Source: a virus (taxonomy: Duplodnaviria; Caudoviricetes). Taken from it: 35,276 nt of DNA. Numbering within the stretch: the stretch's first letter is position 1; every line of letters begins with the position of its first letter. The stretch is taken from positions 1-35,276 of IMG/VR virus record IMGVR_UViG_3300011334_000418, one strand, 5' to 3'. Below are positions 5,055 to 34,556 of this stretch, piece after piece. Below the pieces are notes generated by a model. The model saw only the letters and a list, made by a program, of their open reading frames with translations. It was not told the DNA's origin and did no database searches. Made by a program: the position numbers and the translations under genes.

Positions 5055-6377
5055 ATGTCTATCGAAAAAATCATTGAAAAGGTTGATGCAATTGAAGTGG
5101 CAAACCAAGCCAAGATTGTTGAAGCCGTTGAAGCCGTAAAAGCAGAATTTGAAGAAAAGATTTCTACCCTTGAAGCCAAGGTTGCGGAAGTTAAAGCCCC
5201 TCAAATCATCCAATCACCTGCAAAAAGTGTTAAACAAGATGTGAACCGCATGGTTCGTGAACAAATCCGCGATTTCACCAAATCTTCAAAAGGTTTGGAA
5301 AAAGAAATTAAGATTTGGGAATCTGTGGATCAATACGATGCATACCTAAAAGAAGCAAGCGCATTGACCGGTTCCGGCGCGGGCGTTGGTGGTCGTGTTG
5401 CTTACGATCCCGTATTCCATGTGATGCGTTTGGCTAACCCAATGCGCGGTTTGTCGCGCAATGTGTCAACCGATGGCGCACAATACACTTTCCGCGCCAA
5501 AACAGGCAACGCGGGTGCGGCATGGGGTTATGCAATCAATAACAACGGTTCCGGCACTACTGAAAGCACAAACATTTGGCAATTGAATTTGCAAGATATT
5601 AATGTGCAATTCCCAATCCGTACCGCCGCTTTGGATGATATTGATGGTTTGGAAGCCAATGTGGTTGACGATATGCTTGTGGAATTCTCGCAAGTTGAAG
5701 GTCAATCAATGATTCAAAACAACGATCAATCCGGCACAACCACCACTTCAACAGGTGGAACAAACGGCTTGCGTGGTTTGAATTACTATCCCGGCGCAAA
5801 CAGTTCATATACAGGTGGTACAACTTCCGCTTATGCTTTTGGCACAAGTGGTACAGGTGCAACCGCCGGTTTGAATAGCATTGCAACTTACGATCAAATC
5901 ACAACAAACGGTTTTGCAAGCGCAAACAATGTTAAGTATGCGGATTTGATTAACTTCTTGCACGCTTTGCCACAACAATATTGGTCAAATGGCAACAAGT
6001 GGATGATTTCACCTTTGATGCTTGCCGGTATTCGCGGTTTGGTTGATGACAACGGCACACCTGTGTTTGAAAGAATGTCCCCATTGGTTTACGATGGCAT
6101 CGTTGGCAAGTTGCTTGGTTACGATGTTGTTGTTAACAACTATGTTGATGCGCCTACCGCTTCCGGTGGTTCCGCAGGTACTACAAGCAAGTACCCAATG
6201 TATTTTGGTGATTTCACACGCGGACACACAATCGTTGATCGTTTGAATATGGTATTGCGCCGTTACGATCAAACCGCACCGGGCTTTATCACTTTCTACG
6301 GTGAAAAACGCCTTTGTGCATCGAATGTCGATCCTGCCGCAATCATCCGTTACCGTTCAACCGCAACGGGCGCGTAA
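5055..6377 (+). CDS. Major capsid protein, HK97 fold, with N-terminal coiled-coil delta domain
   Basis: About 100 aa charged helical N-terminus; 'GKLLGYDVVVN', 'MYFGDF', 'ITFYGEKR'; strong RBS AAAGGAAA. Confidence 0.93.
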   Translation: MSIEKIIEKVDAIEVANQAKIVEAVEAVKAEFEEKISTLEAKVAEVKAPQIIQSPAKSVKQDVNRMVREQIRDFTKSSKGLEKEIKIWESVDQYDAYLKEASALTGSGAGVGGRVAYDPVFHVMRLANPMRGLSRNVSTDGAQYTFRAKTGNAGAAWGYAINNNGSGTTESTNIWQLNLQDINVQFPIRTAALDDIDGLEANVVDDMLVEFSQVEGQSMIQNNDQSGTTTTSTGGTNGLRGLNYYPGANSSYTGGTTSAYAFGTSGTGATAGLNSIATYDQITTNGFASANNVKYADLINFLHALPQQYWSNGNKWMISPLMLAGIRGLVDDNGTPVFERMSPLVYDGIVGKLLGYDVVVNNYVDAPTASGGSAGTTSKYPMYFGDFTRGHTIVDRLNMVLRRYDQTAPGFITFYGEKRLCASNVDPAAIIRYRSTATGA

Positions 6378-6449: not shown

Positions 6450-7691
6450 ATGAAAAATACCGCCATTCTTAACGGCATCAAGGAAGCACTAACCAACGGG
6501 GAAGCAACCGTTAACCTGCGCGAAGCAAGTTCCCTTACGGGTTCGGGGCTTGATGCGGGTGGTCGCGTAATTTACGATGATGCGTTTGCTTCTTTGCGTT
6601 ATGCCAACCCAATTCGTATGGGGGCGCGACAAATTGCAACCGATGGTTCGGCACAAGCGTTTGTTGCAAAAACAGGTAATGCAACATTGGTTCAAGATAT
6701 TGCCGTTGTAACCGGCGCAATTTCAACAACCACACTTACAGTTTCCGCAGTAACTTCCGGCACATTGCGTGTTGGTCAATACATTACCGGTACAGGTGTA
6801 ACCGCCGGTACAACAATTACCGCACTTGGTACAGGTACGGGCGGTACAGGCACTTACACCGTAAGCGCAAGCCAAACCGCTTCTTCCACTACCATTACCG
6901 CGCAATCAAACCCTTGGGGTTATGCCATCAACAACAATGGCGGTTCACCCGATATTGCAACAACTTTTTGGCAATTGCCGGTGCGCGATATTAACGCAAG
7001 CCTTCCAATTCGTACCGCAGTTCTTTCCGATATTGATTCATTGGAAGAAGCGGTTGCGGGCGATTTGCTTTTGGAATTGTCGCAACAAGAAGGTTTGTCG
7101 ATGGTTCTTAACAATGACCAATCCGCAAGCACAACTTACGCTTATGGCGCAACAAGTGGTTTGCGTGGTTTAAATTCATACCCCGGTTCCACAAGCGCGG
7201 CGGCATTTGGTTCAAACGGTTCCGCAATCACCAACGGGCGGCATACTGTGTTGCAAGTTGAATTGGCAACCGCAACCGCCGTTGTATATGATGATTTGGC
7301 AAACTTGCAAGCGGCTTTACCGGCGCAATATCTTTACAAGCCAACAACCGCATGGATGATGCATCCAACGACAATCCAAGCGTTGCGTAAATTGAAGGCA
7401 TCCACAAGCGCAAACAACTTCTTGGAAGTTGGTGATGATGATGGCGGCGCGGTGGTTTACATTTTTGGGCATCGCGTAATTCCAAACCCATATATGCAAG
7501 TTGCGGCATCGGGCGCGTTCCCGGTTTACCTTGCAGAATGGGAACGCTTCGTAACCATTGCGGATTACGGCGTAATTGACATTAAGCGATTCGATCAAAG
7601 CGCACCGGGCTTCGTAACCCTGTTTGCTGAAAAGCGCGTTTGCAGTTCCATCCTTGATGTTTTTGCGGGTGTTCGTTTAGTCGGCGCATAA
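6450..7691 (+). CDS. Second HK97-fold capsid protein paralog with inserted Thr/Gly-rich domain
   Basis: Collinear with 5055-6377 (EASx[39 protein letters not shown]); short N-terminus; insertion at 6684-6914. Confidence 0.9.
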
Positions 7692-33619: not shown

Positions 33620-33820
33620 ATGTTCAAAATCCAAGTTGAAGTTAACGGTACAAGCATTGCAGTTGAAGCCGCAACAACATTGAACATGGGCGGCTTGAAC
33701 GCTTTTATTGATTCAATGGGAAATAAACAAGAAGCACCCAAGGTTGCAACCAAAGCCCCGGTAAAGAAAACAACACGCGGGCGCGGCAGACCGGCAGGGG
33801 CAAAGAACAAACGCAAGTAA
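33620..33820 (+). CDS. Small basic protein with AT-hook-like motif
   Basis: 'TRGRGRPAGAKNKRK'; RBS AAAGGAAA. Confidence 0.65.
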   Translation: MFKIQVEVNGTSIAVEAATTLNMGGLNAFIDSMGNKQEAPKVATKAPVKKTTRGRGRPAGAKNKRK

Positions 33821-33843
33821 AGTGATTGCGTTTAAATCATTAA

Positions 33844-33920
33844 CGCGGGGCTTACGGTTAAGGATTACGCCTTTCATTTGGGCGTTTAGATCGTGGGTTC
33901 AATTCCCGCCCCCGCAACCA
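33844..33920 (+). tRNA. Atypical initiator tRNA-fMet(CAT)-like gene
   Basis: Acceptor CGCGGGG / CCCCGCA-A-CCA with C1:A72 mismatch; T-arm GTGGG-TTCAATT-CCCGC; anticodon arm CGCCT-TTCATTT-GGGCG; aberrant D-arm. Confidence 0.7.
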
Positions 33921-33944
33921 ACACAACAACAAAGGAAACAAAAC

Positions 33945-34163
33945 ATGACATTGAAACAACAAATCCTTGATTTACTAACCGCCCAACCCGGATTGGATAG
34001 CAACCAAATAACGGAAGCGTTAAACGCCAAGGTTACAAGCGTTAAGGTTACTTTATGCAAATTGGCAGGTGCGGAAAAGATTACCCGTATTAAAGAATTA
34101 AAGAACAATCCCGATAAAGCCGGGCGCAAAAATACTTATCGTTACAAAGTTAAAACGGATTAA
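33945..34163 (+). CDS. Winged helix-turn-helix protein
   Basis: 'QILDLL...GLDSNQITEAL...SVKVTLCKL...KITR...YRY'; RBS AAAGGAAA. Confidence 0.7.
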   Translation: MTLKQQILDLLTAQPGLDSNQITEALNAKVTSVKVTLCKLAGAEKITRIKELKNNPDKAGRKNTYRYKVKTD

Positions 34164-34196: not shown

Positions 34197-34556
34197 ATGA
34201 ATCACGATGCAATGAAAAACTTTTTGGGCGCGTTAATGTGTGGGCAAATTTGTTTACGCTTAATCCATTGGAACACCAAGGTTTACGCCGAACATAAAGC
34301 CATTGGCAAACTGTACGATCAATTGGCAGATTTGACCGATACCCTTGCCGAAACATACATGGGCATTTACGGAAGGTTTGGCAACATCCCCTGTACGCAT
34401 GGCGATCTTTCCGATGGCATTACTTATTGTGCGGAATTGGCTGATTACATTCAATCCATCCGTACCGAATTACCAAACGATACCCAATTGCAAAACATTG
34501 TTGATGAAATCGCCGCAACCGTTGATCGCACCAATTATTTGTTAACACTTGAATAA
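34197..34556 (+). CDS. Ferritin/Dps-like four-helix protein (DUF5856-like)
   Basis: 'IHWNT..YAEHKAIGKLYD...DTLAE.YMG.YGR', 'LQNIVDEI...YLLTL'. Confidence 0.7.
   Translation: MNHDAMKNFLGALMCGQICLRLIHWNTKVYAEHKAIGKLYDQLADLTDTLAETYMGIYGRFGNIPCTHGDLSDGITYCAELADYIQSIRTELPNDTQLQNIVDEIAATVDRTNYLLTLE

Follow-up and report, generated by a model that had tools for sequence, protein, structure and literature searches.

The 77-nt element analysed here is a tRNA-fMet-like RNA gene of a phage, maintained in sequence and synteny and under selection for its structure as a + strand RNA. It was studied within a 35,276-nt stretch of viral DNA, hereafter the window. Judging from its letters and those of its relatives, it is a real and conserved, apparently undescribed variant of phage-encoded non-canonical tRNA, and most likely it works like an initiator or imitates one. 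The explanation that we tentatively favour is that it acts as a methionylated, formylated stand-in initiator that would escape anticodon-arm nucleases.

The record is a whole phage genome on one contig (94% complete) encoding terminase, portal, head, tail, lysis, recombination and replication genes. The closest named relative of its terminase is that of Methylophilaceae phage P19250A (70.8%), a kinship that hints at, but does not prove, a freshwater betaproteobacterial host. The head and tail module (window 172-21200) is colinear with P19250A (KX815270.1), which also carries DUF5856 and HNH genes near its end, but without the element. Matches to the major head protein family phrog_10 were found for two consecutive ORFs, at 5055-6377 and 6450-7691; the latter has an additional match to a tail-fibre-like segment. 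The element lies on the same strand as the surrounding genes, between a 66-aa ORF and a 72-aa winged-helix-like ORF (Table 1), of which no relative was found in INPHARED. The 66-aa ORF of the window ends in an RGRGRP tail, which we take to be AT-hook-like. In relatives L123, L125, L238, L267 and L272, its slot, in the 340 nt that precede the element, is taken by a pair of short ORFs (42-61 aa) that begin with a hydrophobic, signal-peptide-like stretch and end rich in cysteine; L126 and L282 have one of each kind. A DUF5856 protein (PHROG 858, annotated 'starvation-inducible') is encoded at 34197-34556; L238 has a different gene version in this slot. A promoter scan returned 6 sites against 10.4 expected by chance, and no clear promoter was seen directly upstream of the element.

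Table 1. Positions of the element, its parts and its two neighbours in the window.
Feature	Position	Strand	Remark
Upstream 66-aa ORF	33620-33820	+	Neighbour differs among relatives, element persists
tRNA-fMet-like RNA gene, 77 nt	33844-33920	+	12 distinct orthologues in alignment A1
Acceptor stem, 5' strand	33844-33850	+	Pairs with 33910-33916; pairs 2-7 invariant in 12/12
Replaced D region	33851-33862	+	Predicted 4-bp hairpin directly from nt 8, GG in 4-nt loop
Extension helix, 5' strand (predicted)	33863-33866	+	Pairs with 33889-33892; three one-sided G.U changes
6-bp anticodon stem and 7-nt loop	33867-33885	+	CAU at 33875-33877
3-nt bulge and extension helix, 3' strand (former variable loop)	33886-33892	+	From predicted folds
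T-arm	33893-33909	+	T-loop positions 54-58 invariant
Acceptor 3' strand, A73 and CCA	33910-33920	+	A73, C74, C75 invariant
72-aa winged-helix-like ORF	33945-34163	+	21 or 24 nt 3' of the element in 12/12 orthologous loci

The window copy has an fMet-type acceptor stem with a C1:A72 mismatch, a discriminator A at 33917, an encoded CCA at 33918-33920, a T-arm, and a 7-nt anticodon loop (33873-33879) with CAT in its middle (33875-33877). Its D-arm is replaced, nucleotide 8 is C8 rather than U8, the anticodon stem 29-31/39-41 reads CCT/GGG, position 37 is U, and 8 nt separate the 5-bp anticodon stem from the T-stem. An earlier note on this DNA had described the initiator-like ends, the centred CAT and the rebuilt D-arm, anticodon stem, position 37 and variable region, and all of them were found where it had placed them. 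A loose pattern of the fMet ends (both ends plus CAT) occurred once in the genome and in none of 300 dinucleotide shuffles, and the minimum free energy of the element was -30.2 kcal/mol (z -2.48), with equally stable folds in 1 of 200 shuffles.

ARAGORN with default settings was silent on the element, returning no gene in the window and none in any of the ten orthologous loci given; the element was called only at the relaxed -ps80 setting, among 37 calls in the window of which the rest were apparently spurious. The Rfam tRNA model (RF00005) matched the T-arm only, with 12.4 bits against a cut-off of 29. The sole Rfam match in the window was a weak one to tmRNA (RF00023; 18 bits, cut-off 47; 15.7 bits in L282), and YrlA (RF02553) gave no match in the window (E<=1) or at the element in five orthologous loci (E<=0.5). 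With C8, a pyrimidine at 37, an Rfam score below the cut-off and no ARAGORN call, the element is not a canonical tRNA cloverleaf; a canonical 7/5 acceptor-T branch with the T-loop consensus and a CCA end is present. Standard finders thus overlook conserved phage tRNA-like genes, and phage tRNA inventories are incomplete because of this.

Orthologues were collected by two routes. A search anchored on the downstream protein narrowed 42 candidate stretches to five viral loci, all five with the element at the same place, and screening metagenomes with a 17-mer taken from the 5' portion of the element gave 59 loci, 12 of which carry it (11 whole, 1 cut off); the other 47 were chance matches and were dropped. 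The gap-free alignment A1 comprises 12 distinct sequences, the identical L125, L252, L272, L254 and L273 and the incomplete L277 being left out. For 7 of the 12, the search pattern itself dictated columns 4-20; among the five sequences anchored by the protein, columns 8-23 were nonetheless invariant (16/16), against 19/71 third codon positions next door. Since the discovery of no member relied on an anticodon pattern, the invariance of the anticodon is unbiased. Two viral scans independent of the D region gave no new family contig. A covariance model of A1 (E<=5) matched none of the 78 loci near more distant DUF5856 (36-48% identity) or HNH (46-47% identity) relatives, with flanks of up to 2.5-4 kb, and did not match P19250A with filters off, which suggests that the family is limited to a single clade. 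The window scored 104 bits with this model, against a best score of 48 bits in 100 of 119 background loci. The best non-family scores (47-48 bits) were those of L086 and L098, which, with L005, are viral fMet-type tRNAs with a short D hairpin from nt 8 or 9 (L005:1001-1071(-), L086:301-371(-), L098:301-372). The GTDB species genomes gave one match, a chance one, and no copy of the element. In INPHARED, 45 records matched, none covering 80% of the query, and among the matches listed only the 3' part of the element, its 3' third, resembled known sequences, namely the tRNA-Met genes of known phages.

Conservation in A1 was high and followed the RNA structure. Invariant columns numbered 57/77 in the whole element and 40/60 outside the search pattern, whereas in the adjacent gene only 11/68 third codon positions and 0/9 four-fold sites were invariant. 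All 12 sequences kept acceptor pairs 2-7, A73, C74, C75, U32, U33, the T-loop positions 54-58 including A57, and CAU, which stands 3' of U33 in a 7-nt loop; the terminal A of CCA was encoded in only 7. Pair 1:72 was C.A in 8, C.U in 2, U-A in 1 and U.U in 1, and never G-C or C-G. C29-G41 was present in 11/12 and C30-G40 in 12/12, with no G at 29-31 in any member; positions 37 and 38 vary, the former being U in 10 and C in 2. Double compensatory changes were found in two stem pairs, 31-39 (C-G in 6, U.G in 3, U-A in 3) and 52-62 (G-C in 8, A-U in 2, C-G in 2). On a tree of the adjacent gene, U-A at 31-39 arose at least twice, C-G at 52-62 once (L123 and L267), and A-U there once or twice. The variable pairs held 16 G.U/U.G cells against 2 mismatches (stem cells outside 1:72), an excess that fits a + strand RNA. 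In a shuffle control, the paired cells and covariation score were reached in 0/500 and the number of double-change pairs in 130/500, figures that are not probabilities because the control ignores relatedness. The earlier argument against random decay, drawn from the still-pairing anticodon stem, is thereby strengthened: the homologue search with covariation yielded 12 orthologues with structural conservation and compensatory changes.

These data bear directly on two other readings. A pseudogene or attP relic of a host tRNA-fMet, which the earlier note had tied to unconstrained divergence of the arms, would agree with ARAGORN and the Rfam tRNA model missing the element and with the resemblance of only its 3' third to tRNA-Met genes of known phages. 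However, conservation lies far above that of third codon positions, compensation also occurs in the 3' half, which an att core would fix, no copy exists in the GTDB species genomes, and the 94%-complete genome yielded neither a tyrosine integrase (PF00589) nor a resolvase (PF00239). A relic is very improbable, and with the structure conserved with compensation and no integrase, an attP or pseudogene origin was rejected. Hardly more credible is an N-terminal coding extension of the winged-helix ORF. One frame is open in all 12 and in phase with the downstream ATG, with spacers differing by 3 nt; in the window it runs from 33822 to 34163 through the element into that ORF, and we judged it incidental. 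The variable columns, by contrast, fall 8/6/6 over codon positions 1/2/3, the changes would be radical (W/R/K, F/L/P, P/S/A/L) and keep base pairs, the downstream ATG has a purine-rich ribosome-binding site in front of it, and the family profiles match only from about that ATG.

Single-sequence and consensus folds agreed on a four-way junction of acceptor stem, nt 8-19 hairpin, anticodon arm and T-arm, with a predicted anticodon arm of 4+6 bp with a 3-nt bulge and a predicted 4-bp hairpin. The hairpin had a pair probability of 0.59-0.84 in all 12 members; covariation is silent on it because it never varies, and the D region at 33851-33862 could alternatively form an open D-loop. We infer that nt 20-23 (33863-33866) stand in for the old 22-25 strand of the D-stem and that nt 46-49, from the former variable loop, replace the 10-13 strand. 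The extension helix so formed would give G.U, A-U, U-A and C-G at layers 10:25, 11:24, 12:23 and 13:22, and the 10 predicted stacked pairs (6+4) would equal the count of an ordinary anticodon stem plus 26:44 plus the D-stem. As for R11:Y24, there is no canonical D-stem, and an invariant A-U lies at the equivalent layer of the predicted helix in this presumed register. The helix showed three one-sided G.U changes, no break and no double change, which is wobble-only support; its probability was ~0.3 in 2/12 members (L123, L274), and its letters also end the ordinary variable loop of the canonical viral initiators L053, L079 and L102.

To place the element among other initiators, a viral comparison scan of 15 of 64 collection parts was used, which gave 120 loci with 82 distinct other fMet-type sequences. 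G30-C40 was present in 80/82 and A37 in 81/82 of these (automatic register), and even the most remodelled ones keep G30-C40. All 12 orthologues of the element have lost G30-C40, a purine at 37, C32, U8 and the canonical D-stem; in place of the three G-C pairs 29-31:39-41 by which initiators are recognized, C30-G40 stands in 12/12. In contrast, the elements for MetRS and formyltransferase described for E. coli, G2-C71, C3-G70, G4-C69 and A73 (PMC9976931), are present in 12/12. Because C29-G41 is present, a tRNA-Ile2 (lysidine) identity was considered; it was rejected, as C4-G69 and A37 of the Ile set are absent.

The genome avoids certain words on both strands: CTC/GAG was observed 23 times against 275 expected, the ratio for AG/CT dinucleotides was 0.44, AGCT, GGCC and ACGT do not occur in the window, and CCAG/CTGG occurs twice. 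Relatives likewise avoid CTC, AGCT, GGCC and ACGT, most do not avoid CTGG, and P19250A shares only the avoidance of GGCC and ACGT. The earlier remark that canonical arms are rich in avoided words holds, since the 82 other viral fMet-type tRNAs carry 1-10 of 11 such words (median 6) and the element none, a zero that is also normal for 77-nt stretches of this genome in general (0.09 expected). As the element carries no avoided word, U32 and the new D region are plausibly a result of pressure at the DNA level. Such pressure does not force the inverted anticodon stem, because G30 and A37 are retained in every one of the 6/82 background tRNAs that have U32. Four of the 12 orthologues tolerate CTC in the T-arm.

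In the mechanism that we propose for a stand-in initiator, RNase P and trimming of the 3' end would free the RNA from the polycistronic transcript, which runs rightward, and a CCA-adding enzyme would complete the end in the 5/12 members that do not encode the last A; the freedom of this A fits a substrate of that enzyme. By E. coli identity rules, the host MetRS would charge the RNA via CAU, A73, G2-C71 and C3-G70, and the host enzyme would formylate it via the weak 1:72, A73 and pairs 2-4. It is the joint conservation of CAU and a formylation-type acceptor that argues for a charged, formylated RNA. The variable-loop strand is predicted to pair with the 22-25 strand and to recreate an A11-U24-like pair, and the inverted anticodon stem and changed 37/38 would remove the site of fMet-specific anticodon nucleases. 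The stand-in would act when host defences cut the host tRNA-fMet, and its cost, weak initiation, would be relevant only once the host initiator is depleted. In the work of Walling and Butler (2018), anticodon-stem pairs reportedly matter for VapC cleavage.

Several published results agree with such a role. An initiator mutant without the three G-C pairs initiated efficiently once the host tRNA-fMet was lowered (PMC3017606), a rescue observed, though, with a CUA-anticodon tRNA on a UAG reporter, and in E. coli A37U tRNA-fMet is tolerated and improves growth of the metZWV deletion (PMC10018350). In several bacteria, VapCs cleave tRNA-fMet at its anticodon stem-loop, with specificity for both sequence and structure (PMC8522696). 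Phage tRNAs with changes near nuclease sites are known (PMC10264068), and altered phage tRNAs have been proposed or shown to escape tRNases (PMC10264068), with escape also reported for retron and PARIS (PMC11555353, PMC12409363). A remodelled core alone is no mark of a dead gene, because initiator-type RNAs that lack a predicted D-stem sit in the tRNA arrays of unrelated, large phages.

Other observations count against a stand-in initiator. In E. coli, the mid-CG mutant (C30-G40) is charged and formylated, cannot sustain cells as the sole initiator and, although it reaches the 70S, fails to attain the elongation-competent state. Mutants without G30 are toxic in the metZWV deletion, that is, at low initiator levels (PMC5389676); both the mid-CG failure and this toxicity tell against the role. 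In wild-type cells, mutants of the three pairs do not function in initiation, although they are formylated (PMC6393288). The retention of G30-C40 by 80/82 other viral fMet-type tRNAs is a further point against it. C32 and A37 are minor MetRS determinants of E. coli tRNA-fMet (PMC9976931) and are lost in 12/12, which weighs on the same side, as does the strong growth inhibition of E. coli by A37C (PMC10018350), given C37 in 2/12 members. PMC10264068 reports that, as a rule, Shigella phages leave tRNA-fMet out of their genomes instead of carrying an altered version, which also speaks against a stand-in. Finally, start codons showed no co-adaptation to U37 (A at -1), with 22/45 ATG starts among hand-picked window genes against 24/49 in a phage without the element; this lack of a shift and the lack of a double change in the extension helix both count against the role. 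That the element is a natural tRNA architecture new to bacteria and their viruses, with a D-stem rebuilt from the variable-loop strand and initiating without G30-C40, is possible but on the unlikely side; on this reading it would be one of a wider, finder-hidden class of D-stem-less phage initiators evolved to escape initiator-specific defences.

The same acceptor end could also serve a charged but ribosome-incompetent decoy that would sequester toxins recognizing the aminoacylated acceptor end of tRNA-fMet (AtaT-type GNAT acetyltransferases or others), with the loss of G30-C40 barring the RNA from productive initiation; we consider this possible, if on the unlikely side. The main AtaT determinant, G4-G5-G6:C67-C68-C69 (PMC7595197), is invariant in 12/12, CAU is needed for charging, and G30-C40 is absent in 12/12 but kept in 80/82 other viral initiators, mid-CG failing as an initiator. 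A C1-G72 pair, however, leaves ~65% of AtaT activity (PMC7595197) and never occurs in the 12, yet A72U arose in three lineages, which suits formylation better and tips the balance to the formylation pathway. Moreover, the acceptor stem is simply the ancestral fMet stem. A formylated amino group would be no substrate for acetylation. The earlier note had suggested a decoy for tRNA-targeting defences; a decoy for anticodon-arm nucleases such as VapC was rejected since the stem-loop they cut is the very part that is changed.

A charged, formylated RNA might instead be a dominant-negative modulator that stalls 30S/70S initiation complexes and so damps or retimes host translation. The pile-up of mid-CG initiators in the 70S and the toxicity of G30-less mutants at low host initiator and of A37C would agree with this. 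Against it, the phage relies on the same ribosomes and no start-site feature was found that exempts phage mRNAs, and we regard such a modulator as quite improbable. Somewhat less improbable, though still not likely, is a mascRNA-like processing tag, whose tRNA shape would bring in RNase P and 3'-trimming activity so that the operon is cut and the downstream winged-helix/DUF5856/HNH message acquires its 5' end or its stability. The same ORF lies 21 or 24 nt downstream in 12/12 while the upstream gene varies, and no clear promoter lies directly upstream. RNase P reads the acceptor stem and T-arm, the best conserved regions of the element. A processing tag needs no CAU, U32/U33 or weak 1:72, yet all are conserved while 37/38 vary, and processing is expected under the other readings as well; a pure RNase P tag is inadequate because it leaves the invariant CAU unexplained.

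Whichever of these applies, initiator identity is split in the element: the charging and formylation signals are kept and the ribosome checkpoint signal is dropped. If it initiates, it would show that the G30-C40 rule of bacterial initiation has a natural exception, and it would allow a ready test of phage tRNAs as nuclease-proof spares; if not, it would be a natural charged tRNA decoy, of a sort that searches of the open-licence PMC and bioRxiv literature did not return for phages. Among the papers listed by those searches, none described a phage RNA of its kind. Other phages carry fMet-type RNAs at L017:1001-1071, L093:301-371 and L025:1001-1071, with similar ones at L039:1001-1071, L107 and L117; those of L017, L025 and L039 sit in tRNA arrays. 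ARAGORN was silent on all six, and Rfam on L017, L025 and L039. In L017, L093 and L025, the D region is 10-11 nt long and has no predicted stem, and the anticodon stem spans 8-9 bp. These phage RNAs keep G30-C40 and A37 and are possibly a separate undescribed class. The occurrence of fMet-type RNAs with no predicted D-stem in unrelated phages suggests that remodelled initiator cores recur.

Compared with the bacterial initiator tRNA-fMet (E. coli metZWV/metY; PMC5389676, PMC9976931), the element shares the 2-7 pairs, the weak 1:72, A73, CCA, CAU, U33, the T-arm with A57 and the length of 77 nt, and differs in having no G30-C40 or other G-C at 29-31, a pyrimidine at 37, U32, C8 and no canonical D-stem, with 13 nt from anticodon loop to T-stem against ~10. 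With the tRNA-like domain of tmRNA (RF00023) it has in common the 7-bp acceptor, T-arm, CCA and a stemless D region followed by a longer helix; unlike tmRNA, it has no tag ORF, pseudoknots or G3.U70 (C3-G70 instead), possesses an anticodon loop and scores <47 bits. In mitochondrial tRNA-Ser(AGY), an extended anticodon stem offsets the loss of the D-stem. This D-armless tRNA (PMC9427863) shares D-stem loss with the element, which in contrast belongs to a bacteriophage and has fMet identity, a perfect acceptor and T-arm, and a possible 4-bp hairpin at nt 8-19. Like the element, the 8/4 and 9/3 allo-tRNAs of bacteria and phages (PMC5389517) are non-canonical and phage-carried, but they alter the acceptor/T branch, whereas the element keeps 7/5 and alters the D/anticodon branch; the words 'initiator' and 'fMet' are absent from the main text of that paper. 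The nuclease-escaping phage tRNAs (PMC10264068) are likewise phage-encoded with the anticodon stem-loop changed where nucleases act. They are canonical cloverleaves with point changes, whereas the element is a single gene in a 35-kb genome rather than part of a tRNA array, with its whole core rebuilt and the initiator hallmark given up.
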